A stretch of DNA of 64,000 bases from Chloroflexota bacterium (GCA_048620455.1 JBMCFH010000002.1:513-64512); one strand, 5' to 3'. Counted from the first letter of the stretch, positions 4,100 through 45,275 are shown. Notes: generated from the letters alone by a model not told the origin. Made by a program: numbers and translations.

Positions 4100-5068
4100 T
4101 TACGTCGCCAGGCGCCAGCGGCGGGCGTTTACCCCCTTCATGATATTACTGGCTTCGACCGCTCGCGCACTGTCCGTGCGTAGCATGAGCAGGATATGGC
4201 CCCGTTTGACGCTGCTGGCGTAGCGATACTCGTCTTCCTGGGAAACACCGAGGCCGATGATGGCTCCAATCAGGGCTCCGAAGAAAAGCCCGGCGGCTGC
4301 CCCCAGCACAATCGTCCACAAAAACACCTCCAGCGTGCTCAGGCCAAAGAGCGCTGTGCCAGGCGCGACGATGGCGCTGATGCTGGCCACCAGGCCCAGC
4401 ACGACGCCGACAGCAGCGCCGACCAGGGCGCCGGCAAGAGCGCTTTCCACCGTCGTATTGGCCACGTGCTGGCCCTCATACACCGTGAGGACATCCTTCA
4501 AAGGCACTCTTTCCATTTGCTGCGGGTCAAATCCGGCATCCGCCAGATCGGAAACCGCTTCGCCGACGCTATCCTCATCATTAAACAGGCGCACCACCAA
4601 CTGGCGTCCGTCGCGGCCCTGCAACTCCTGTACGCGCCCGTGGACTTCCTGAATGCGCTCATGCTGCGCCGCAATGTCGGGGCGCAGGTCATTGGGCATC
4701 GCGCGTTCCATAGCGTCTTCATAGGTGCGCACTGCCACACTTTCGCCACGCACAACCTCAGACAGGACCACAGCTTCCGTCGCCGGCTGTCCAATCGTCA
4801 TCGCTGCCTTGATGTTGATCCAGCCCCGGTGGATGGCTGCCAGCGGCCCGCCCCCCTGCGCAGGCTCACCACCAAGCGACTCGACAGCTGCTTGCAACTG
4901 TCCGGCGTACTGGGAACGCTCCTGGGCGTACGTCTTGAACATCACCTTCAGGCCGCGGTTTTTTACGTTTTCCGCCGCGACGTTGAAGCCTTTCTCGCTG
5001 GCAATGCACAAACGTGCCAGACGATTCAAGGTTGCGACTGCCTGCCGGTTCTGTGTAGCCATACACAC
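4100..5068 (-). CDS. stress-protein fusion: PA2169/DUF2383-like four-helix bundle + YflT/general-stress-17M-like domains + glycine-zipper TM segments
   Basis: The N-terminus LNRLARLCIASEKGFNVAAENVKNRGLKVMFKTYAQERSQYAGQL resembles the ferritin-like DUF2383 family. The middle (VVRLFNDEDSVGEAVSDLADAGFD) and the C-terminus (SVKRGHILLMLRTDSARAVEASNIM) resemble YflT-type stress domains. Two Gly/Ala-rich TM helices are present (GALVGAAVGVVLGLV; GAAAGLFFGALIGAIIGLG). Confidence 0.55.
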   Translation of the reverse strand: MCMATQNRQAVATLNRLARLCIASEKGFNVAAENVKNRGLKVMFKTYAQERSQYAGQLQAAVESLGGEPAQGGGPLAAIHRGWINIKAAMTIGQPATEAVVLSEVVRGESVAVRTYEDAMERAMPNDLRPDIAAQHERIQEVHGRVQELQGRDGRQLVVRLFNDEDSVGEAVSDLADAGFDPQQMERVPLKDVLTVYEGQHVANTTVESALAGALVGAAVGVVLGLVASISAIVAPGTALFGLSTLEVFLWTIVLGAAAGLFFGALIGAIIGLGVSQEDEYRYASSVKRGHILLMLRTDSARAVEASNIMKGVNARRWRLAT

Positions 5069-26858: not shown

Positions 26859-27623
26859 ATGCTACCCACCATCGACATCGGCCCGCTCGTCATCCCTACC
26901 GCCGGTCTGGTATACATCCTCGGCATCTGGCTTGCACTCTCCGTCGTGGAGAAGGCAGCGGCTGCGTTGCGCCTGCACGTGGCAGCCACTTATACCGTAG
27001 GCGTTGCAGCGCTGGCTGGCGGATTTATCGCGGCCCGTGTCGTTTTCGTCGTTACCCACTGGAGCGCATACGCCGACAACCTTCTGGGCATCATCTGGCC
27101 CCTCACTTCAGGCTTCAATTTCGGCGCAGGCCTGCTGGTTGGTATCGCAGCCGGATTCTTCTACGCCAGGGCGCGCCGGCTACCGGCCGGCGACACCCTG
27201 GATGCTCTCGCCCCAGGCATCCTGGTCGGTCTTGCCATGGTCAGCCTGGCCGACTTTCTGGCCGGCCCGGGATACGGGAAGGAGGCTGATCTGCTCTGGA
27301 GCATCGACCTTTTTGACATTCGGCGTCATCCGGTTCAGATCTATGAGATAGTGGTCGCCGCGCTGGCCCTGTTAGGCTGGCATCTACAACGGTCCCGTCG
27401 CGAGTACGCGGGCCAGCTCTTTTTGCTTGCCGCCGCCATCTACAGTGCAGGGCGACTGTTTGTAGACGCCTTCCGAGCAAATGCCTGGCTGACCGCGGGC
27501 GGCTATCACGTTTTGCAGATCATCCTGTTCATACTCTTCATGGCCTGCCTCTTCCTGTTGGGTTACTTTGCGCGGCAGAATGCTCCGGCCCAGGCAGAAG
27601 TCGAGGCAGCCTCGCAAGGCTGA
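26859..27623 (+). CDS. Lgt-family (prolipoprotein diacylglyceryl transferase-like) membrane protein, divergent paralogue
   Basis: RRHPVQIYEIVVA matches the HPxQxYE motif and GRLFVDAFR matches the distal Lgt motif. The position of the GRxGNFxNxE signature reads SLADFLAGPGYG, so the Arg and Asn are missing. The gene starts 2 nt after the TlpA-like stop. Confidence 0.6.
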   Translation: MLPTIDIGPLVIPTAGLVYILGIWLALSVVEKAAAALRLHVAATYTVGVAALAGGFIAARVVFVVTHWSAYADNLLGIIWPLTSGFNFGAGLLVGIAAGFFYARARRLPAGDTLDALAPGILVGLAMVSLADFLAGPGYGKEADLLWSIDLFDIRRHPVQIYEIVVAALALLGWHLQRSRREYAGQLFLLAAAIYSAGRLFVDAFRANAWLTAGGYHVLQIILFILFMACLFLLGYFARQNAPAQAEVEAASQG

Positions 27624-36055: not shown

Positions 36056-36754
36056 ATGCAGGATTACGGCAAGGACAGGCGCTGGCCATTTGCGGAAGGC
36101 GGCGGCGCCACAATAGGAGTTGTCTCGGCGTTGTTCTTCACAACGCTGGCATTGTGGCGCGCCCGTCCCAGCTTCCTGACGCGCGCAATCGCCGGTCTTG
36201 GCGCCGTGATATGGACCCTCGTCCTCTACTTCTTCCGTGACCCCAACCGCAACCTAACACAAGCGCCGGGCCTCGTGGTCAGCGCCGGCGACGGCGAAAT
36301 AGTGGACGTTCGGCGAGAGAGAGAAAACGAGTACCTCCGCTGCGAAGCAATACGCATCAGCACATTCCTTTCCATCACCGACGTCCACGTGCAGCGTGTG
36401 CCAATAAGCGGTCGGGTGACACAGATTAAACACCGTCCGGGCCGTTTCCTCCAGGCCTTTCGCCCCGAAGCATCCACCCAGAATGAACACATCGCCATGA
36501 CCATCGAAACGCCCCGGGGCCCCGTCCTCGTAAAGCAAATTGCGGGCATCATGGCCCGTCGTTGCGTCAATTATTTGCAGCCCGGTGAATGCGTGGAGAC
36601 AGGACAACGCTTCGGTCTCATACGCTTCGGTTCCCGTGTCGATCTCTTTGTGCCGCCCGCAGCGGAGATCCTGGTAGGCATCGGGACAAAGGTAAAAGGT
36701 GGGCTGACACCGGTCGCACGCCTGGAAAGTGGAGGATCGGATGATACAGAATAG
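36056..36754 (+). CDS. psd: phosphatidylserine decarboxylase proenzyme (short, archaetidylserine-decarboxylase-like type)
   Basis: FFRDPNR...SAGDGEIV...ISTFLSITDVHVQRVPISGRV is typical of Psd. The self-cleavage site equivalent is IRFGSRVDLFVP (G-S). Confidence 0.85.
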   Translation: MQDYGKDRRWPFAEGGGATIGVVSALFFTTLALWRARPSFLTRAIAGLGAVIWTLVLYFFRDPNRNLTQAPGLVVSAGDGEIVDVRRERENEYLRCEAIRISTFLSITDVHVQRVPISGRVTQIKHRPGRFLQAFRPEASTQNEHIAMTIETPRGPVLVKQIAGIMARRCVNYLQPGECVETGQRFGLIRFGSRVDLFVPPAAEILVGIGTKVKGGLTPVARLESGGSDDTE

Positions 36755-37454
36755 CAAGTACCGCTACGTGATCCCCAATTTCGTGACCTTCACCTCTCTG
36801 GCCTGTGGTGTCGTCTCGATTATCGCTGCCGGAAGTGGAGATTTGATGCTTGCCGGCATCCTGATCCTCGCCAGCTATGTGCTGGATTTGCTCGACGGCG
36901 AACTGGCCCGGCGCCTGGATGCTGGTACCGACTTTGGCCTTCAGCTCGATTCGCTCACCGATCTTGTCAGCCTGGGCGCCGCGCCGGCAATGCTTGCCTA
37001 TTTCCACCTGACTGCCGAAGGAAACGTTCCGGTGCCTGTGCTGGGTCCGGCCATCGTTATTTACGTCCTTGCCGGCGCCTACCGTCTGGCTCGCTTCAAC
37101 CTTCTGCCGGTCAAAGAGGGTCAGACCGACTCCGTTGGCCTTACTATTTCCACCAGCGGTGCTACGCTGGCGCTGGCGGTGCTTTCAGACATCGTCAACA
37201 CCGGCGAGGTCATCCACAACGGGTTCTTCATACCGTTGCTCGTCATTCTCAGCTTGCTGATGGTGAGTCGCATCTCCTACCCGTCAGTCGTCTGGGTCTT
37301 TTCACGACGCTGGGCCAACTTCTTGTACATGGTTTACTTTGTAACAACGCTCGTCCTGCTGCAGCTCTCCTTTTTCCACGTCTGGTTCTTGTTCAACAGC
37401 GGGTATCTGAGCGCGGCGCTGGTGCGGGCCGGCTACCACGTAATCGAGGAATAA
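36741..37454 (+). CDS. pssA: CDP-diacylglycerol--serine O-phosphatidyltransferase
   Basis: The CDP-alcohol phosphatidyltransferase motif is DLLDGELARRLDAGTDFGLQLDSLTDLV (DGxxARx8Gx3Dx3D). GGAGGA lies 4 nt upstream of ATG 36741. The gene overlaps the end of psd. Confidence 0.8.
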   Translation: MIQNSKYRYVIPNFVTFTSLACGVVSIIAAGSGDLMLAGILILASYVLDLLDGELARRLDAGTDFGLQLDSLTDLVSLGAAPAMLAYFHLTAEGNVPVPVLGPAIVIYVLAGAYRLARFNLLPVKEGQTDSVGLTISTSGATLALAVLSDIVNTGEVIHNGFFIPLLVILSLLMVSRISYPSVVWVFSRRWANFLYMVYFVTTLVLLQLSFFHVWFLFNSGYLSAALVRAGYHVIEE

Positions 37455-37539
37455 AGGGCCCAGGCATGCGCCCGGCATCGAGGCCGGACGGCAGTTCAGC
37501 CAACGGCGGGTGTAGCACGATCGTCCACGGGCACATCTG

Positions 37540-38211
37540 ATGAGTTCTTTTCGCACGCGATTGATAGGCAATGGCCTGTATCTATTGTCGCAGATGACGC
37601 GCAGAACGGCGCGTTATCACGTCAGCGGGCGCCACCATTTCGAGCGCAGTCGCGCGGATGACACTCCCACGGTGTGGGTTGCCTGGCACGGGATGACGAT
37701 GATGCTCGCCGGGTTCGTGTTACAGAATTACGATGCGGGCTCGCTGGTGATTATGATGCCCGACGATTGGCGGGGAGAGGCGCTCGGCCATTGGGCGCGC
37801 CGCCTGGGCGCCACACCCTGGCAACTGAATCTGAAGGGCGATACCAGCATGGCTACTGCCCGCCGCCTCGCCGCCATGCTTCGCCTGCTGCGCGAGGGCT
37901 GCGACGCGTATGTCACCCCGGACGGACCGGATGGCCCGGCGTATAAGATCAAGCCCGGCGTGGCGTACCTGGCGCAAAAATCGGGAGCCACCCTTCTCCC
38001 GATCGGCGCTTATACGCGACGCGGTCACCGGCTGAATCGATGGGACCGCTATGTTGTCCCCTATCCCTTCAGTCGCATTGCGGTCGTGATCGGGAGCCCC
38101 ATCACGGTTCCGGGCGACGTTGAGCTTGCCGACATCACGGAACCGCTGACGGACGTTCTGCACCGCGTCACAGCCCAGGCTGCGGCCAACTATTATGAGG
38201 CTGACGAGTGA
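37540..38211 (+). CDS. DUF374 / lysophospholipid acyltransferase (LPLAT)-superfamily protein, copy 1
   Basis: WHGMTMML...YVTPDGPDGPAYKIKPGVAYLAQKSGATLLPIG...NRWDRYVVPYPFSR matches the DUF374 pattern. Confidence 0.7.
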   Translation: MSSFRTRLIGNGLYLLSQMTRRTARYHVSGRHHFERSRADDTPTVWVAWHGMTMMLAGFVLQNYDAGSLVIMMPDDWRGEALGHWARRLGATPWQLNLKGDTSMATARRLAAMLRLLREGCDAYVTPDGPDGPAYKIKPGVAYLAQKSGATLLPIGAYTRRGHRLNRWDRYVVPYPFSRIAVVIGSPITVPGDVELADITEPLTDVLHRVTAQAAANYYEADE

Positions 38212-38888
38212 GCGAACTGGGAATAAGGTGGCGACATCTTCAAGGCAGCGGGCTCTACTTCTACAGTCGTGTATTGGCCCGCACAGCGCGCATCCACGTA
38301 GAGGGATGGGAGAATTACACCAATACCGGCGACGATGGGCGACCGCTTCTCTGGTCGTTCTGGCACGGACAACTGATGCCCTTCATTACCTTCGGTCAGC
38401 GATACCTCGACGCCAGCGACTTTGTAGTCATTACCGTGGGCGACGACCGTAATGACACGCTGGGCACATTCGCCCGCCGGCTGGGCGGCGTCAGTGTAGG
38501 CGTTGACATGCAGGGCAACCCCTTCGCCGCAGGTCGCGCCGTGCTGCGCGTGATCAAAGCCATGAAGTCAGGCCGCCAGTCGGTTCTGGCTCCCGACGGG
38601 CCGGACGGCCCGGTGTTTACGCCTAAGGCAGGGGTAGCCTTTCTGGCACAGAAGGCCGGGGCCAGCATCCTGCCCGTGGGCGCCTGGACGCGCCACGCCT
38701 TACAGATGGAGCGCTGGGATCGATACTTGCTCCCCCTGCCCTTTGCCCGCTACTCTATCGTTATCGGGCAATCATTGACCGCACAGCCAGATGGCGACCA
38801 GCATCAGCTTCTGGCGCAGATCTCAAGCAGCCTTCACGAGGTCCGGGCGCGGGCGCAGGTGTTGGCCGGTGTACGCCCCTGGCGTTAG
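38208..38888 (+). CDS. DUF374 / LPLAT-superfamily protein, copy 2 (tandem paralogue)
   Basis: WHGQLMPF...VLAPDGPDGPVFTPKAGVAFLAQKAGASILPVG...ERWDRYLLPLPFAR aligns residue-for-residue with the upstream gene. The start overlaps the upstream stop by 4 nt. Confidence 0.7.
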   Translation: MSELGIRWRHLQGSGLYFYSRVLARTARIHVEGWENYTNTGDDGRPLLWSFWHGQLMPFITFGQRYLDASDFVVITVGDDRNDTLGTFARRLGGVSVGVDMQGNPFAAGRAVLRVIKAMKSGRQSVLAPDGPDGPVFTPKAGVAFLAQKAGASILPVGAWTRHALQMERWDRYLLPLPFARYSIVIGQSLTAQPDGDQHQLLAQISSSLHEVRARAQVLAGVRPWR

Positions 38889-38908
38889 GCGATTGCCGCC
38901 GGCAGCGC

Positions 38909-40399
38909 TTATGCCGCATAGACGATTCTGACCACCATCGGCGTCACATAGGCCTCAACCAGGGCGGCGAGCAGCAGGAGGGGAGCGATAACTCCCAGCA
39001 AGATGCGTGCAAAATCAGCGCCAGCCTCCAGCCAGCTCTGGCTCACACTCTGGTCCGGCTGCGGCGCAATTACGGCAGTTTGCCAGCGCAGCGCAGCTGC
39101 CGCAACCAGCAGCAGCGCCGGCAATTCTATCGCGCCATGCGGCGCGATGGTAGCCAGCACAAATAGCGCAGCGCTCTCCCCTGCGTAAGCCAATTGCATG
39201 GCAATGAAGCCGATTACGGCCCAGGGCAAAAGGAAAATAGCCAGACCGAGCACCCCAAACGTGAAAACACCCAGGATAATGGCCAACAGCACCACGCGCA
39301 CGTTGTGCACAAATATCATGGCGGGCAGGCCGCTCAGGACACCCTCTAACCGCGACAGGTTTTCAATCTGGTCGGCCTGCTGCAGCGCACTCTGTACGGT
39401 GGCGGGAAAGGTATACTGTTGCGCCAATAACACGCCCAACAAGACAGCACCGGCAAAACCGATGAAGGTCATCAGCAGAGCCTCGCGCAGCCGTGTTAGC
39501 AACCCCACTGTCTGCCGGTACCAGCGCAGCACTCCAGGATACTCACCGGTTTCTCCACGTCCGCGAAAGCGCGCCCAGAAAACACGCCACATCCAGCCAA
39601 GTCGAATCTGGTCGATGTCGCGGCCAAGTAACTCCTCGCGATTGAAGACGGCGACGCCCATGCGCATGAGCACGATGGCGCTGACGACAAGGCCGGCGAT
39701 CAACCACCACAGCCCGGCATAGTTACCCCAGAACATCACCACAGCCTCGACCTGCACCAGAAGGGCCATCGGCACTATGATGAAACTGGCCAACAGGTTG
39801 GCCGCTCGCGTGCTCGTGGTCTGGCTGGAGACGACCACAGCGCCCGCCACCATCACCACCCCCTGCACCGTCGTAATCAGGATCGTCTGAACAAACAGTT
39901 GCAGGCTGGGGTACCACTCAACGGTCAGAGCCAGTCCCACCAGATAAACGCCTATGCCCAGATAGCTGGCTGCGAGCGGCGGCACGAGGGCAGCAAGCAT
40001 CTTCCCCAGGTATAGCTGCTTGTTCGTCAGTGGCGTCGCCAGCAGCGGTTCCAGACTCTTTCTTTCTTTCTCGCCGACAAACGTCTCCAAGGCGATTACC
40101 AGCGAAAAGGAGGTGGGAAAGAATCCCACGACCAACAACAGGAAGGGAATAAGCCGCGTACCAATCAGCTCAGCGCCATAATCGGTCACAAATTGTAACA
40201 GGCGCCCGGCTGTATAGTTCATAAGCAGTGGGAAAAACAGAGTGAGCAGAATGATCGGAATGATAATGCGCCAGTCGCGGAAAGAATCGCGCACCTCGCG
40301 CCGCGTTACGATCAGGGCCATGCGCACGTCCCGACCGTCGAATGGCAGCAACCGCTGTTTAGACGCGGGGCGGTCGGCCGGAATCATATGCTCGCTCAC
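38909..40399 (-). CDS. ABC-2-type permease fused to a SpoIIM/DUF95-like membrane domain
   Basis: The N-terminal half has a 6-TM ABC-2-like layout after a cytoplasmic leader. The C-terminal half carries SpoIIM-family signatures: IFVHNVRVVLLAIILGVFTFGVLG, PHGAIELPALLLVAAAAL and LLLLAALVEAYVTP. Confidence 0.6.
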   Translation of the reverse strand: MSEHMIPADRPASKQRLLPFDGRDVRMALIVTRREVRDSFRDWRIIIPIILLTLFFPLLMNYTAGRLLQFVTDYGAELIGTRLIPFLLLVVGFFPTSFSLVIALETFVGEKERKSLEPLLATPLTNKQLYLGKMLAALVPPLAASYLGIGVYLVGLALTVEWYPSLQLFVQTILITTVQGVVMVAGAVVVSSQTTSTRAANLLASFIIVPMALLVQVEAVVMFWGNYAGLWWLIAGLVVSAIVLMRMGVAVFNREELLGRDIDQIRLGWMWRVFWARFRGRGETGEYPGVLRWYRQTVGLLTRLREALLMTFIGFAGAVLLGVLLAQQYTFPATVQSALQQADQIENLSRLEGVLSGLPAMIFVHNVRVVLLAIILGVFTFGVLGLAIFLLPWAVIGFIAMQLAYAGESAALFVLATIAPHGAIELPALLLVAAAALRWQTAVIAPQPDQSVSQSWLEAGADFARILLGVIAPLLLLAALVEAYVTPMVVRIVYAA

Positions 40400-41385
40400 G
40401 ATACAACTTCCTGCAGCGAAGCTATGGCAGGCCGCCTCGTAGGAGCACTCCTCGCCGCTTCATCTTCGCGCAAAACGCTCAAATAGACGTCTTCCAGGCT
40501 CTGAGGCACAGAGTGTAGAGAAACGACGCCGATGCCGAGTGCTGTCAGTTTCTTAACCAGCAGCGGGTTGGCCACGGCCGGGTCACCGGCATGATAGTGC
40601 AGCAAATTGCCATCCACGCTCTGTAGAGTGATGAAGTCTGGAAGTTCATCTGCAACGTCGTCGAGCGCGCCATCCAACGGACGATCCAGGCGCATTTCTA
40701 GCAACGGCGGACCCAGAAACCGGCGCTTTAACGCGTCGGGCGTCCCGGAAGCGATAATGCGTCCCTGGCTGATAATGGCGATGCGGTCAGCCAGGCTTTC
40801 CGCTTCCGCCAGATTGTGGGTACAGAGAATAATACCGCGCCGGTCGCGGCGCAGCTGGTGGATGGCATCACGTACCAGTCGCGCGCTGTGTGGGTCCATC
40901 GCCGATGTCGGTTCGTCCAGCAGCAAGGCGGCCGGATCGTGCAACATGGCTCTAATGAGCCCCACCTTCTGCCGCATGCCCTTTGAGTAGGTGCCCAGGC
41001 GTCGCCGCGCCGCGCCGTTCATAGCGAAGCGCTCAAACAGCTCCAGGGCCCGTTTTTGACTGACCGTGTCGGGCAGGCCATACAGGCGTCCAAAAAAGAC
41101 GAGGTACTCCAACCCCGTCATGCGCAGATACAGACCGGGCTGTTCGGTGAGCATGCCAATACAGCGGCGAACGCGATCCGGTTCCGCAATAACGTCATGG
41201 CCATTGATACGGGCCCGGCCCAGCGTGGGACGCAAAATAGCGCCCAGCATGCGCACCGTCGTCGTCTTTCCGGCGCCGTTGGGACCCAGGAGCGCCAGCA
41301 ACTCTCCCTGTGAGACGTGAAGATCCAGATCGCGGACGGCGTATTCAGTATCGAATTGTTTGGTTAACCCGATTGCCTCAATCAT
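40396..41385 (-). CDS. ABC transporter ATP-binding protein
   Basis: Walker A is GPNGAGKTT, the signature motif is YSKGMRQK, and Walker B is LLLDEPTSAMD, followed by an H-loop (CTHNL). The stop overlaps the permease start. Confidence 0.9.
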   Translation of the reverse strand: MIEAIGLTKQFDTEYAVRDLDLHVSQGELLALLGPNGAGKTTTVRMLGAILRPTLGRARINGHDVIAEPDRVRRCIGMLTEQPGLYLRMTGLEYLVFFGRLYGLPDTVSQKRALELFERFAMNGAARRRLGTYSKGMRQKVGLIRAMLHDPAALLLDEPTSAMDPHSARLVRDAIHQLRRDRRGIILCTHNLAEAESLADRIAIISQGRIIASGTPDALKRRFLGPPLLEMRLDRPLDGALDDVADELPDFITLQSVDGNLLHYHAGDPAVANPLLVKKLTALGIGVVSLHSVPQSLEDVYLSVLREDEAARSAPTRRPAIASLQEVVS

Positions 41386-42431
41386 ATTGTTTCACGCTCC
41401 CCAGCCTCCTGTTCCTCATAAAAGCGCGCCAGTTCGTCGCGCTCCGGCCGGGCCAAAAGCTCCTGTCCGTCCTCATTGGCCAGCCAGACGGCTGGCGGCC
41501 CTGGCGCCACTTCCCCAATGGTAGACGAGGTGATGCCATTTTCTCGCAAGACTGCATTCACCTGGGGCGCATCGGCCGCTTTTGTCGTCAGCAACAGCGC
41601 ACCTGATGCAATCGTAGCCAACGGATCAAGCCCCAATTCAGTGCAAATCTTCTGCGACACGGCGGGCACCGGAATGGCGGCGCGCTGCACCACGAGGCTG
41701 TTGCCGCTGGCCTCAGCCAACTCCCAGAGCGCAGCCGCCAGCCCCCCTTCCGTCGGATCGTGCATGGCCGTGACCCGTCCGGCAGACAACGCCGTGCGGG
41801 CGTCGTCCACCACGCTGATCCCTGGCTCATAGAGAAAATCAGCCGCTCGCCGCACCTCGTCCGGCGAAAGGACCTCGGCCACTCTCTCCGGAAACTCTCG
41901 GGCCAGAATTGCCGTGCCTTCGATTGGCACGCCCTTGGTCAGCAGCAGAGCATCGCCCGGCGTCGCGCCCTGTGGTACAACGAGACGCTCTTCAGAGACT
42001 TCTCCCACAAGTGTACCCACCGCAATCGGCCGCTCCAGACCGTGCGTAACCTCTGTATGACCGCCAATGACGGCGATGTGCAGGTCGCGACAGGCCCTGT
42101 AGATCTGTGAGGTCAGGGTTTCCACCAGCGCCTCGTCGCTCTCGCCCTGGGGCAAGAGCAAAGTCACCAGGAGCCACCGCGGTATGGCCCCTGTGGTGGC
42201 AACGTCGTTCGCATTAACCTGCACCAGATACCAGCCCAGTTCGTCGCTGGCAAACGTAATCGGATCGCTCTTAAAAACCAGCAGGCTGTCACCGTGACGC
42301 ACCACGGCGCAATCCAGACCGATTCCAGGGCCCAGCAAGACATCGTCGTCCGCCACGGGCGCGCGCGCCAACAGGCGCTGGAGGAGATCGGGCGGGAGCT
42401 TGCCCACCGGTAAAGGCGTCTCAGCGCCCAT
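41382..42431 (-). CDS. AIR synthase-related (PurM/HypE/ThiL superfamily) protein
   Basis: VGKLPPDLLQRLL...GPGIGLDCAVV...FKSDPITFASDELGWYLVQVNANDVATTGAIPRWLLVTLLLP matches the PurM-like N-domain pattern. The C-domain reads AMHDPTEGGLAAAL. The start is taken at ATG 42431 (MGAETPL); the track ORF extends to TTG 42488. Confidence 0.7.
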   Translation of the reverse strand: MGAETPLPVGKLPPDLLQRLLARAPVADDDVLLGPGIGLDCAVVRHGDSLLVFKSDPITFASDELGWYLVQVNANDVATTGAIPRWLLVTLLLPQGESDEALVETLTSQIYRACRDLHIAVIGGHTEVTHGLERPIAVGTLVGEVSEERLVVPQGATPGDALLLTKGVPIEGTAILAREFPERVAEVLSPDEVRRAADFLYEPGISVVDDARTALSAGRVTAMHDPTEGGLAAALWELAEASGNSLVVQRAAIPVPAVSQKICTELGLDPLATIASGALLLTTKAADAPQVNAVLRENGITSSTIGEVAPGPPAVWLANEDGQELLARPERDELARFYEEQEAGERETI

Positions 42432-43626
42432 TGTTTGCCCGCCGGTGACGAAGGTAGATCCAGGCAGCCATAAGCAAGGCCAGAACAATCGAAACCAGCG
42501 TCGCTATGGGAAGCTGGACCGCGCCCACTTCCATCTGCCGGCTATCCAGGCGTACTGTCTCCAGTAACGTGCGGCCCACGGCATAAAGGATCAGGTAGAC
42601 AGCCATAACATCGCCCTTTAAGAGCCGCTCGTGGTAACGCCGTACGAGCGTGAGCAAAATCACAAAGGCCAGTAAGTTCCATAAGGACTCATAGAGAAAG
42701 GCGGGGTGAAAGCGCTCGAATTGCTGAAAGCCGTCCAGACGGTAAGCCGGTTCGATCCACACGGCCCACGGCGCCGAAGTAGGCCGACCATACAGCTCCT
42801 GATTGAAGAAATTGCCCCAACGCCCCACAAATTGTCCCAGCGCCACGCCAACGACTGCCAGATCTGCCCAGCCCAGCCAGGAGATACGCGTTCGATAGGC
42901 GTAGATCAGTAGACCCAGCGCGCCCCCGGCGATTCCACCGTAAATTCCCAGCCCGCCGCGCCGCAAATTGACCAGCTGCAGTGGATTGCGAAAGTAGTCC
43001 GCCGGCGAGGTAATGCCCACCTCGGCCATACTCGGCGATGGGGTAAACACGTGGTATAGGCGCGCCCCGACCACAGCAAGAATCAGACACCAGATGAGCC
43101 CGTTCCACACGTGGTAGGGGTTCCACTGCCCCCAGCGCGGATTGTCCAGCCAGCGCGCATCTATCCCCGGCTGAGCCGCCAGCGTCTGGCGTACAACGTC
43201 CCGTCCTTCACTATTCAGGGGCAGCCCGTCGGACCCAAATCCCAGATAAAGCAACAACTCCCCCATACGATCCACGTCCTTGCCGGCCAGGACCTTTTCG
43301 ATTTCCTCAGGCAAATCCAGTCTGTCCACGGGACGGCTGCGCACGTTACGCGGCACCTCGTCTCTCAACACACGGCGCGCCTGTTCCAGCGCAAGACGGA
43401 AGACTACGTAGGATCCGAGGGCGATACCGCCGGTGATAATCAGACCATACCAGTAGATGTTAAATTGCAGGGCCTCAACACCGAGGGCCACACGGTCAGG
43501 GGTGAAACCGGTAAATATGTGGTAGAGATACAGCCCAACTGCCAGGAGCAGGAATAGGCCGATTGCATACCAGTATGGCTGCACCTCTGTCAGGCGTGAT
43601 TTGTTCCGGGCTGTCTGTTCCATCAC
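42421..43626 (-). CDS. lgt: prolipoprotein diacylglyceryl transferase with ~85-aa cytoplasmic insertion
   Basis: The Lgt signature GRWGNFFNQELYGRPT is present, along with FHPAFLYESLWN and GRTLLETVRLD. At 401 aa it is longer than the usual ~260-290 aa, owing to an insertion after the second TM helix. Confidence 0.85.
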   Translation of the reverse strand: MMEQTARNKSRLTEVQPYWYAIGLFLLLAVGLYLYHIFTGFTPDRVALGVEALQFNIYWYGLIITGGIALGSYVVFRLALEQARRVLRDEVPRNVRSRPVDRLDLPEEIEKVLAGKDVDRMGELLLYLGFGSDGLPLNSEGRDVVRQTLAAQPGIDARWLDNPRWGQWNPYHVWNGLIWCLILAVVGARLYHVFTPSPSMAEVGITSPADYFRNPLQLVNLRRGGLGIYGGIAGGALGLLIYAYRTRISWLGWADLAVVGVALGQFVGRWGNFFNQELYGRPTSAPWAVWIEPAYRLDGFQQFERFHPAFLYESLWNLLAFVILLTLVRRYHERLLKGDVMAVYLILYAVGRTLLETVRLDSRQMEVGAVQLPIATLVSIVLALLMAAWIYLRHRRANNGR

Positions 43627-44252
43627 TCGCTAACGGTTTGTTGCCAGACGTGGAAGATTCGTTGTGCAACGGTAATGTAGGCAAAGATTGCGATTATTGC
43701 CAATCCTACCATGGGATAACCCAGAAGAAGTGTAGCCGTCAGCACAAAGTAGCGCTCAACCCTGCTCATGATGCCAATGCGGCAGGATAGATCCAGGGCC
43801 TCAGCTCGCGCCCGCGCATAACTGACCATCAGGGAGCCGGTAATCGCGATGTACGTCGTGGACAGCATCAACAGATCCTGGCTGTTGGCAGCATAGATCA
43901 AAAAGCCGCCAAATAAGACAATTTCGGCCAACCTGTCCAACGTCGAATCGAGAAAGGCGCCGAAGCCATCCGCTTTGCGCCCTTGCTTGCGGGCAAGCGC
44001 ACCGTCCAGACCATCCAGCGGTGCTATCAGCGCGATCGCCAGACCGGCGGCGCGCATCTGATCCTGGATGATGAGCCAGGCGATCAGAAAGTGGCCCACT
44101 GTGCCCAGTACAGTGAGCGTGTTAGGCGAAATCTGATAGCGAGCGAGAAATGTGACGATAGGATCGACGATAAAGAAGGTGCGCTCGCGCAGCACGTCGG
44201 TCACGGTTTTTCTTTGTGATGCGGGTGTTTCCTGTGACGTAGAACGGTTCAT
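43623..44252 (-). CDS. CDP-alcohol phosphatidyltransferase (PgsA / phosphatidylinositol-phosphate synthase-like)
   Basis: The motif DGLDGALARKQGRKADGFGAFLDSTLDRLAE is present (DGxxARx8Gx3Dx3D) and the protein has 5-6 TM helices. The head-group specificity cannot be read from the sequence. Confidence 0.75.
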   Translation of the reverse strand: MNRSTSQETPASQRKTVTDVLRERTFFIVDPIVTFLARYQISPNTLTVLGTVGHFLIAWLIIQDQMRAAGLAIALIAPLDGLDGALARKQGRKADGFGAFLDSTLDRLAEIVLFGGFLIYAANSQDLLMLSTTYIAITGSLMVSYARARAEALDLSCRIGIMSRVERYFVLTATLLLGYPMVGLAIIAIFAYITVAQRIFHVWQQTVSE

Positions 44253-44591
44253 TGGTTTCCTGACCTTCCTGAGAAGGGCTCACTGGCGCCGTGCAAGGCG
44301 CTTTCAATCGCCGGACGCCGACTAAGCGTCGAGGCGAAACGCGTACCATGGCACACTCATCTCCTGAGGAGAGAGGCCGCCGTGCCGGCGGTCCATCTGC
44401 TGAACAAACCGGGTTTCATCCCTGGTCATAAGAGCATATCTATACTCCATACCGGCGTGGAAAAAGGCAATTTTACGCTATAATTGGCTCTGCGCCAGAA
44501 GCCAGGAGTTTACTCAGGATAGCCGGTGGCTACTGGTGTTGGCTGAACCGGACGCCTTAGCATCATACTACTCATGAAGGAGAATTGCGCA

Positions 44592-45275
44592 ATGAAGCAC
44601 GAAATTCACGGCACGACATTACAGACGCTGGATCTGTATCTGAGTCAAGGAGAAGCGGTCTATACCGAATCGGGGGGGATGGCCTGGATGACGGGCGACG
44701 TTGACATGGAGACGAACACCCGCGGTGGACTGATGAAGGGCCTGGCGCGCTCGCTCGCGGGCGAATCGCTCTTCTTGACCACCTACACCTGCCGCGGTAG
44801 CGGGGCACTGATCACCTTTACTCCAGAGGCTCCCGGTTCCATTATCACGGTTGAATTGGGCGCCGGCGAGAGCCGCATTTGCCAGAAAGACGCGTTCATG
44901 GTTGCCGAAAGTTCGGTTGAACTGGAGGTTCATTTTCGTAAGAAGCTGGGAACGGGTCTCTTTGGTGGTGAAGGCTTCATCCTGCAAAAACTGACGGGCC
45001 CTGGCACGGCCTGGGTTGAAATAGCAGGCGAGGTGCGCAGCTACAACTTAAAGGCGGGCCAGACCATGCGCGTGGATCCGGGTCACATCGCCATGTATGA
45101 GCCAAGCGTCAGTTACGAGATCAACCGCGTCAAGGGGGTAAGAAACATCCTGTTTGGCGGTGAGGGCCTCTTCCTGGCGACACTCACCGGACCAGGAAAA
45201 ATCTGGCTGCAAAGTATGCCTCTGGCCAACCTGGCCTCGAGTCTGGCGCGCTACATACCAACTTCAAGCAGCTAA
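44592..45275 (+). CDS. AIM24 / TIGR00266 (DUF124) family protein
   Basis: LDLYLSQGEAVYTESGGMAWMTGDVDMETNTRGGLMKGLARSLAGESLFLTTY...GEGFILQKLTGPGTAWV...GGEGLFLATLTGPGKIWLQS is the family's repeated beta pattern. AAGGAGA lies 8 nt upstream of ATG 44592. Confidence 0.8.
   Translation: MKHEIHGTTLQTLDLYLSQGEAVYTESGGMAWMTGDVDMETNTRGGLMKGLARSLAGESLFLTTYTCRGSGALITFTPEAPGSIITVELGAGESRICQKDAFMVAESSVELEVHFRKKLGTGLFGGEGFILQKLTGPGTAWVEIAGEVRSYNLKAGQTMRVDPGHIAMYEPSVSYEINRVKGVRNILFGGEGLFLATLTGPGKIWLQSMPLANLASSLARYIPTSSS

Follow-up and report, generated by a model that had tools for sequence, protein, structure and literature searches.

A probable four-gene membrane-biogenesis operon in Anaerolineae, pairing a PIP synthase-like transferase with Lgt and an ABC exporter, with an optional PurM-superfamily passenger

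The Lgt of E. coli is specific for phosphatidylglycerol (PG), and Lgt is regarded as strictly PG-dependent. In the PurM superfamily, the chemistry of ThiL, PurM and HypE is the phosphorylation of a phosphate or carbonyl oxygen, and the cysteine of the C-terminal PR(I/V)C motif of HypE carries a carbamoyl and then a thiocyanate group. In the phosphatidylinositol phosphate (PIP) synthase of Mycobacterium tuberculosis, R155 and R195 bind the phosphate of inositol-1-phosphate (PMC4634129). We describe here a five-gene locus in which relatives of these enzymes are encoded together with an ATP-binding cassette (ABC) exporter, at positions 38909-44252 of a 64,000-nt stretch of DNA (GCA_048620455.1 JBMCFH010000002.1:513-64512, hereafter the window) from a 4.08-Mb metagenome-assembled genome (MAG), 77.6% complete, of a Chloroflexota bacterium. 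The evidence is entirely in silico and comparative. We interpret the locus, with a probability of about 0.7, as a membrane-biogenesis operon made of a four-gene core (CDP-alcohol transferase, Lgt, ABC ATPase and permease-SpoIIM protein) and one optional passenger, the PurM-like gene. The five genes are, in the order of transcription:

43623-44252, minus strand: PIP synthase-like CDP-alcohol phosphatidyltransferase, first gene of the operon (209 aa; Pfam PF01066, CDP-OH_P_transf)
42421-43626, minus strand: Lgt, prolipoprotein diacylglyceryl transferase (401 aa; TIGR00544)
41382-42431, minus strand: PurM-superfamily HypE-like protein (P0001) without the C-terminal Cys (349 aa; Pfam AIRS and AIRS_C)
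40396-41385, minus strand: ABC transporter ATPase, DrrA-type (329 aa; PF00005, ABC_tran, and DrrA1-3_C)
38909-40399, minus strand: fused ABC-2 permease and SpoIIM/DUF95 membrane domain (496 aa; PF12679, PF01061 and PF01944)

The list of open reading frames (ORFs) and the reading of the junctions in the sequence showed that the five genes overlap by 4, 11, 4 and 4 nt, and all five domain assignments were backed by Pfam and NCBIfam, in agreement with the preliminary description of this locus as five overlapping minus-strand genes with these domains. The transferase/lgt junction is GTGA; with ATG 43623 as the start of Lgt it would be a 1-nt overlap, TGATG. The lgt/PurM-like junction, ATGGGCGCTGA, is the 11-nt overlap between the lgt stop and ATG 42431; the PurM-like ORF spans 41382-42488 and a start at this ATG gives the protein of 349 aa. 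The PurM-like/ATPase junction is ATGA, and the ATPase/permease junction is a 4-nt overlap, GTGA. From the gene overlaps we infer that the five genes are co-transcribed. A consensus scan for promoters and terminators within the operon gave counts no higher than in shuffled sequence.

The association of the four core genes was followed in other genomes by anchoring on single genes. Among the 80 permease-anchored loci, 56 had enough upstream sequence to be informative, and 46 of these exhibited both the transferase and lgt upstream, 2 the transferase only and 8 neither. The ATPase and the permease were found together in 75/80 of the permease-anchored loci, the upstream DNA of the remaining five being cut short or holding no ATPase match over the threshold. 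In the same way, with lgt as the anchor, the transferase was located directly upstream in 34/80 loci, 27 of which had the ABC genes downstream. These sets of the 80 best matches are skewed to close relatives, and an even sample of the class reveals the patchiness considered below. All four core genes are present in the cultured Thermanaerothrix solaris and Longilinea arvoryzae, with the cassette copy as the best-scoring Lgt of the genome, and F. flocculi has a transferase-lgt pair of which the lgt is the only one found in the genome. Variant arrangements were also observed: inositol-1-phosphate synthase (MIPS)-transferase-lgt, MIPS-transferase-ABC-permease, transferase-ABC-permease without lgt, and transferase-lgt without the ABC genes. 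Many Anaerolineae thus have the four core genes side by side in one and the same order. The transferase gene is a hub, whose partner varies between genomes (lgt, the ABC pair or MIPS). Because the link between transferase, lgt and exporter recurs widely, a unit coupling lipid synthesis to Lgt is reasonable.

For the PurM-like gene, an orthologue set of 80 species from many phyla (42-83% identity) was assembled and the flanks were checked over 6 kb. The operon context was found in 1/80 loci, that of the nearest relative (L007, 83% identity), and none of the three genes lgt, transferase and permease was seen within 6 kb in the other 79 loci (42-66% identity). When the ORFs around the 80 loci were clustered all against all, no neighbour of the family proved to be conserved, the best candidate occurring in 10/80 loci. 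The gene and the cassette are unlinked in seven genomes (JACKCD01, CBDCWU01, CAWFZT01, DOXE01, JAPKMQ01, T. solaris and F. flocculi). Of ten further congeneric species searched at the DNA level, seven had the gene at this position (G132, G134 and G136 to G140), so that 8/11 species of the genus have it between lgt and the ABC genes; it was missing in three (G125, G133 and G135), with a lgt-ABC gap of ~30-260 nt. In G125, which is 100% complete, no PurM-like orthologue was detected anywhere in the genome at E <= 1e-30. Across the GTDB family, an orthologue was present in 5 of 21 sampled genomes, representing 20 genera. The PurM-like gene thus appears as an optional, genus-specific passenger, on which the core operon does not depend.

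The place that it occupies also receives other genes. In 11 other loci the lgt/ABC junction holds 0.6-2.7 kb of unrelated genes, coding for an extracytoplasmic function (ECF) sigma factor with DUF6596, DUF998, a GNAT acetyltransferase, a PIN domain, an esterase or DUF5640. Examples from other Promineifilaceae/Ardenticatenaceae are the inserts L185:2396-3655, L196:2331-3176, L187:2982-3743 and L188:3245-4078 and 4374-4784, with an ECF sigma factor fused to or followed by DUF6596, DUF998 membrane proteins, GNAT and a PIN gene. The lgt/ABC junction is an insertion hot spot. In a quick tree, four operon-linked copies of the PurM-like gene and four sequences from MAGs labelled Gammaproteobacteria fell into one weakly supported group (SH-aLRT, the Shimodaira-Hasegawa-like approximate likelihood ratio test, 90), which is consistent with a single relocation of the gene into the operon. 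A different order appears to be present in one congener (G139:C14:54652-58759), namely DUF374, PurM-like gene, lgt, transferase and AIM24, without the ABC ATPase and permease between, the DUF374 and PurM-like matches being ~500 nt apart.

We then compared the PurM-like protein with the members of its superfamily. It scored below every equivalog cut-off: 104 bits for HypE (TIGR02124, cut-off 251.6), 93.6 bits for ThiL (TIGR01379, cut-off 184.15), 67.7 against 125 bits for selD and 35 against 236 bits for purM. The nearest solved sequence is HypE 2z1t (E 7e-19), followed by ThiL, PurM and SelD. An AlphaFold model built with an alignment of 42 homologues (pLDDT 95.7, pTM 0.93) retrieved HypE first in Foldseek (3vyt_C, 3wjp and 2z1e, TM-score up to 0.78/0.81), then SelD (0.72), ThiL (0.67) and PurM (0.61-0.66). 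In sequence and in modelled fold, the protein is closest to HypE. The conserved C-terminal Cys is absent from the 42-sequence family alignment, however, and the window protein ends in ...EAGERETI, with no PR(I/V)C; a true HypE is encoded elsewhere in the same genome (contig C51, 451 bits), and T. solaris holds HypE, SelD and a member of the PurM-like family together. For these reasons the protein is not HypE, and an ordinary hypE was rejected. An ordinary thiL was rejected for the family as a whole, since canonical ThiL (263-311 bits) accompanies it in 5/5 genomes tested outside Anaerolineae (from Gammaproteobacteria, Acidobacteriota, Rokubacteria and Dehalococcoidia). Within Anaerolineae the family may have a ThiL role, because canonical ThiL was not found in four genomes of the class (G001-G004: T. 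solaris, F. flocculi and two Chloroflexota MAGs) nor in the incomplete genome studied here. The family has 50% mean column identity in the 42-sequence alignment and invariant residues of its own (N-terminal G-K, D40, N75-D76, GGHTE, MHDPTEGG and D332). ATP-dependent phosphoryl-transfer chemistry is expected, as superfamily and fold are those of ThiL, SelD and PurM, and the protein would activate a probably soluble substrate in this way. In the same four genomes, two of them from isolates, no canonical PurM was detected either (best 39 bits, cut-off 236); the missing canonical PurM and ThiL suggest that de novo purine synthesis and thiamine monophosphate kinase may be absent or replaced in the class.

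The first gene of the operon was assigned by sequence and structure matches. Its best NCBIfam models are archaetidylinositol phosphate (AIP) synthase (NF040950, 142.8 bits, cut-off 180, E 1e-41) and PIP synthase (NF045883, 130.7 bits, cut-off 170, E 5e-38), and the NCBIfam pgsA model gave no match at E < 0.01. The nearest solved structures are the PIP synthases 6h53, 5d91 and 6wm5 (E 2e-18 to 6e-15), and the only other PDB match was to an AF2299-type enzyme. The CDP-alcohol phosphotransferase signature D-x2-D-G-x2-A-R...G-x3-D-x3-D is present, PLDGLDGALAR...GAFLDSTLDR aligning to 6h53. S144, R147, R167 and R198 align to S132, K135, R155 and R195 of the M. tuberculosis enzyme, so that both phosphate-binding arginines are kept (R167 for R155 and R198 for R195). 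Among 101 surveyed genomes of the class, at least 16 had the orthologue and MIPS no more than 5 kb apart, often as direct neighbours. On these grounds the transferase is rather likely to be a PIP synthase. A second CDP-alcohol transferase of ~270 aa was seen in each of T. solaris (L309:8104-8949) and F. flocculi (L310:7593-8390); these match no NCBIfam equivalog (best 39 bits to AIP synthase) and bear on PG and phosphatidylserine capacity.

The Lgt of the operon scored 153.7 bits with TIGR00544 (cut-off 118.9). We take the residues important in E. coli Lgt to be Y26, R143, N146, E151, G154, R239 and E243. The blocks YWYG, GRWGNFFNQELYG and GRTLLETVR align to the E. coli structure 5azb, and the GRxGNFxNxELxG and RxxxExxR blocks are conserved in the cassette Lgt in this alignment. 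H103 of E. coli is replaced by Tyr in the window protein and by Pro in the Anaerolineaceae copies. Judged from these blocks, the cassette Lgt is catalytically intact. An insert of ~85-95 aa between the first and second transmembrane segments, TM1 and TM2 (~43123-43374), is common to this genome, G057 and L171 (loci L268 and L171), and the Anaerolineaceae cassette copies (T. solaris, F. flocculi and L. arvoryzae) have no such insert. The genome also encodes LspA and, on contig C378, a second Lgt with intact catalytic blocks. Two further Lgt-family paralogues, one in the window (~26871-27560, plus strand) and one on contig C27 (7545-8240), are unlikely to be active diacylglyceryl transferases, because the GRxGNFxNxE catalytic block is missing. 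A literature search on Lgt in Chloroflexi found no paper.

The exporter consists of an ATPase of the drrA subfamily (TIGR01188, 271.7 bits) and a permease with PF12679 (ABC2_membrane_2) and PF01061 at residues 30-216 and PF01944 (SpoIIM) at residues 312-487. Clusters with this ABC-2/SpoIIM fusion in the ESM Atlas are commonest in Chloroflexota, and no paper naming the fusion was found in the library searched.

Taken as a four-gene core with a passenger, the operon would work as follows. The transferase would join CDP-diacylglycerol and inositol-1-phosphate to give PIP, which would then be converted to phosphatidylinositol (PI). Lgt would place diacylglyceryl on the lipobox cysteines of prolipoproteins, possibly with the product of its neighbour as donor, and the ABC-2/SpoIIM pump would export or flip a lipid or lipoprotein product of this chemistry. 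The PurM-like gene would have landed in the variable lgt/ABC junction in the ancestor of the genus and become translationally coupled there; it would be co-expressed with the core without being required by it, its enzyme acting on an unrelated substrate. That Lgt in Anaerolineae takes its diacylglyceryl from an inositol lipid (PI or PIP) and not from PG is a speculative proposal, which we consider improbable at present. Equally doubtful is the larger picture in which the anionic lipid derived from CDP-diacylglycerol is an inositol lipid, PI or PIP is the Lgt donor, the exporter handles a product such as a PI-based lipid or the lipoproteins, and the HypE-like enzyme may, in this genus, modify the head group.

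Several observations weigh against a four-gene core with a passenger, and are considered here with the explanations that they would favour. The preliminary description had offered, as one hypothesis, an ATP-dependent modification and export step coupled to synthesis of the Lgt donor; in such a pathway of all five genes, the PurM-like enzyme would activate or phosphorylate an intermediate (lipid or lipoprotein) after the donor is made and before export. The gene overlaps both of its neighbours (by 11 and 4 nt), its exact place and tight coupling are kept in 8/11 congeneric species at 57-83% protein identity, and the chemistry of the superfamily could in principle act on PI/PIP head groups; retention in eight species is compatible with a locally acquired functional link. 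Such a five-gene pathway nevertheless seems very doubtful, given three congeners that keep the four-gene operon without the gene (G125 having no orthologue at all at the E value above), 79 orthologue loci in many phyla with no lgt, transferase or permease nearby and no conserved neighbour, and an insertion point that hosts unrelated genes elsewhere. The protein moreover shows no membrane feature, Pfam detecting two AIRS domains only and the model being of HypE type, and we found no evidence tying the family as a whole to lipids. The synteny of this gene with lgt and the ABC genes proved to be confined to one genus; the possibility, also raised earlier, that it is an ordinary thiL or hypE orthologue did not hold, the comparison with ThiL, HypE, SelD and PurM placing it nearest to HypE and below the HypE cut-off. 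What stands of the proposed single functional unit is the tight coupling and the recurring link between transferase, lgt and exporter (46/56 and 34/80 loci), with the PurM-like gene as an optional element. This link could itself be an inherited order of housekeeping membrane genes, kept for convenience of co-expression and with no shared pathway. In a class-level sample of one genome per family (44 families, partners within 8 kb) the cassette is patchy: the transferase stands alone, with no lgt, ABC pair or MIPS, in 29 families, its partners elsewhere being lgt (6 families), the ABC pair (8) and MIPS (7). The tolerance of the lgt/ABC junction for unrelated insertions, and the unrelated ftsK directly upstream in T. 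solaris and F. flocculi, would fit this explanation as well. Against it, the transferase keeps its partners through rearrangement (lgt only, ABC only, MIPS with either) at 35-60% protein identity in several families, a persistence unusual for neutral gene order, and we judge inherited order to be an improbable explanation of the cassette.

The product of the transferase has to be weighed in the same manner, since an enzyme derived from the PIP-synthase branch could serve Anaerolineae as phosphatidylglycerophosphate synthase, or have both specificities; its pairing with lgt would then couple PG supply to Lgt. The transferase remains under both the PIP and the AIP synthase cut-offs. In the class survey its orthologue was present in 100/101 genomes and MIPS in fewer, 70/101, including both same-family genomes examined; MIPS was not found in the genome studied here by hidden Markov model or tblastn, a result that at 77.6% completeness does not show the gene to be absent. 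A specificity for inositol phosphate is for these reasons uncertain. In F. flocculi, which has the transferase-lgt pair, no MIPS was found. Canonical PgsA (TIGR00560) passed its cut-off in 3/101 genomes of the class, with two more coming close and ~12 showing weak, separate PgsA-like matches of 40-56 bits; canonical pgsA was thus not found at the cut-off in 98/101 class genomes, nor in the present genome (77.6% complete), where pssA and the cassette enzyme were the only CDP-alcohol transferases seen. In L. arvoryzae, the cassette enzyme is the sole CDP-alcohol phosphatidyltransferase seen. The genome-search prefilter may overlook divergent genes. The PG specificity of E. coli Lgt also speaks for a PG-related product, and the conserved arginines do not discriminate between the acceptors, because both candidate substrates are phospho-alcohols. 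On the other side stand the greater proximity of the sequence to PIP/AIP synthases (E 1e-41 and 5e-38) with no pgsA match, the restriction of the PDB matches to PIP synthases and the AF2299-type enzyme, and the linkage to MIPS, directly beside the gene in several genomes. A PG-supplying transferase is an alternative to be taken seriously, which we nevertheless hold to be unlikely. The earlier idea of a coupled synthesis of the Lgt donor remains reasonable for the recurring transferase-lgt link and is altered for the enzyme, which by sequence is PIP-synthase-like rather than generic or PG-making. A literature search on the polar lipids of Anaerolineae and on PI or PG in Chloroflexi gave nothing relevant by title or abstract.

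Three further features flank the operon:

44253-44573, no strand: intergenic region and presumed promoter region, between the operon and the divergent AIM24-family gene (321 nt; read in the sequence)
44574-45275, divergent: AIM24-family gene, upstream of the operon
36056-38888, plus strand: psd-pssA-DUF374-DUF374 operon, a convergent neighbour, not part of the unit (Pfam and NCBIfam)

The divergent AIM24 gene is located upstream of the operon in many related loci and is kept in a subset. The convergence on a psd-pssA-DUF374 operon, as reported in the preliminary description, was confirmed: the stops of the permease gene and of the second DUF374 gene face each other 20 nt apart (38889-38908), and this arrangement adjoins the permease in 16/80 permease-anchored loci. 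The 20 nt are GC-rich and may form a shared bidirectional terminator, though the terminator scan called none there. The transferase-lgt pairs of T. solaris and F. flocculi are each directly preceded by a gene for an ftsK-type DNA translocase (L307:10627-12816 and L308:6354-8534, respectively). The relatives of the genome are Anaerolineae of the Promineifilaceae and Ardenticatenaceae type, and the contigs with this DNA derive for the most part from a study of a hypersaline lake and microbial mats. The sequencing runs matched by this DNA were DNA runs of that study and runs with small shares of its sequence words, with no RNA run among them. The nearest relative (L007/L312) is labelled 'Candidatus Sulfomarinibacteraceae' (Acidobacteriota according to the tree tool); this label looks wrong, because over 6.4 kb the locus is 81% identical at the DNA level to, and fully syntenic with, this Chloroflexota-type genome.

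Lgt is regarded as strictly PG-dependent, yet in this class the main lgt adjoins a PIP-synthase-like gene, with canonical PgsA over its cut-off in 3/101 genomes. Since the cassette occurs in two cultured species, T. solaris and L. arvoryzae, the question of the lipid donor of lipoproteins is directly testable. A genomic context is gained for two orphan families, the ABC-2/SpoIIM fusion permease and the Cys-less HypE-like clade of the PurM superfamily, and the latter teaches that tight translational coupling within one genus is not evidence of pathway membership.

Compared with described systems, the PurM-like protein shares with HypE, the carbamoyl dehydratase of hydrogenase maturation (2z1e, 3vyt, 2z1t and 2i6r), the DPTxGG block and the two-domain architecture of the superfamily, and differs from it in the missing C-terminal PR(I/V)C Cys, its own invariant residues and the score under the TIGR02124 cut-off. 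It has the superfamily and fold of ThiL, SelD and PurM (TM-score 0.61-0.72), and differs from them by scores below the cut-offs and by its coexistence with canonical ThiL (5/5) and with SelD (T. solaris). The exporter resembles the ABC-2 systems DrrAB, NatAB and GldAF, its ATPase being nearest to drrA and the N-terminal half of its permease being ABC2_membrane_2, and the C-terminal half of the permease matches SpoIIM (PF01944); in contrast to all of these, permease and SpoIIM domain are fused here in one polypeptide. The cassette Lgt is like E. coli Lgt (5azb/5azc) in passing TIGR00544 and in conserving the R143/N146/E151/G154 and R239/E243 blocks, and unlike it in the ~85-95-aa insert between TM1 and TM2, the replacement of H103, and the pairing with a PIP-synthase-like gene in a class mostly without canonical PgsA. 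The transferase shares its operon with lgt and an ABC exporter, which sets it apart from actinobacterial pgsA1, for which we know of no report of such an arrangement. With the bacterial PIP synthases (M. tuberculosis PgsA1 6h53 and Renibacterium PIPS 5d91; PMC4634129, PMC6506517), the transferase shares a length of ~200 aa, the DxxDGxxAR...GxxxDxxxD signature, the equivalents of S132, R155 and R195, and MIPS linkage in relatives; it differs from them in scoring below the NCBIfam cut-offs, in the changes of K135 to Arg and P153 to Val, and in being kept in class genomes where MIPS was not found.

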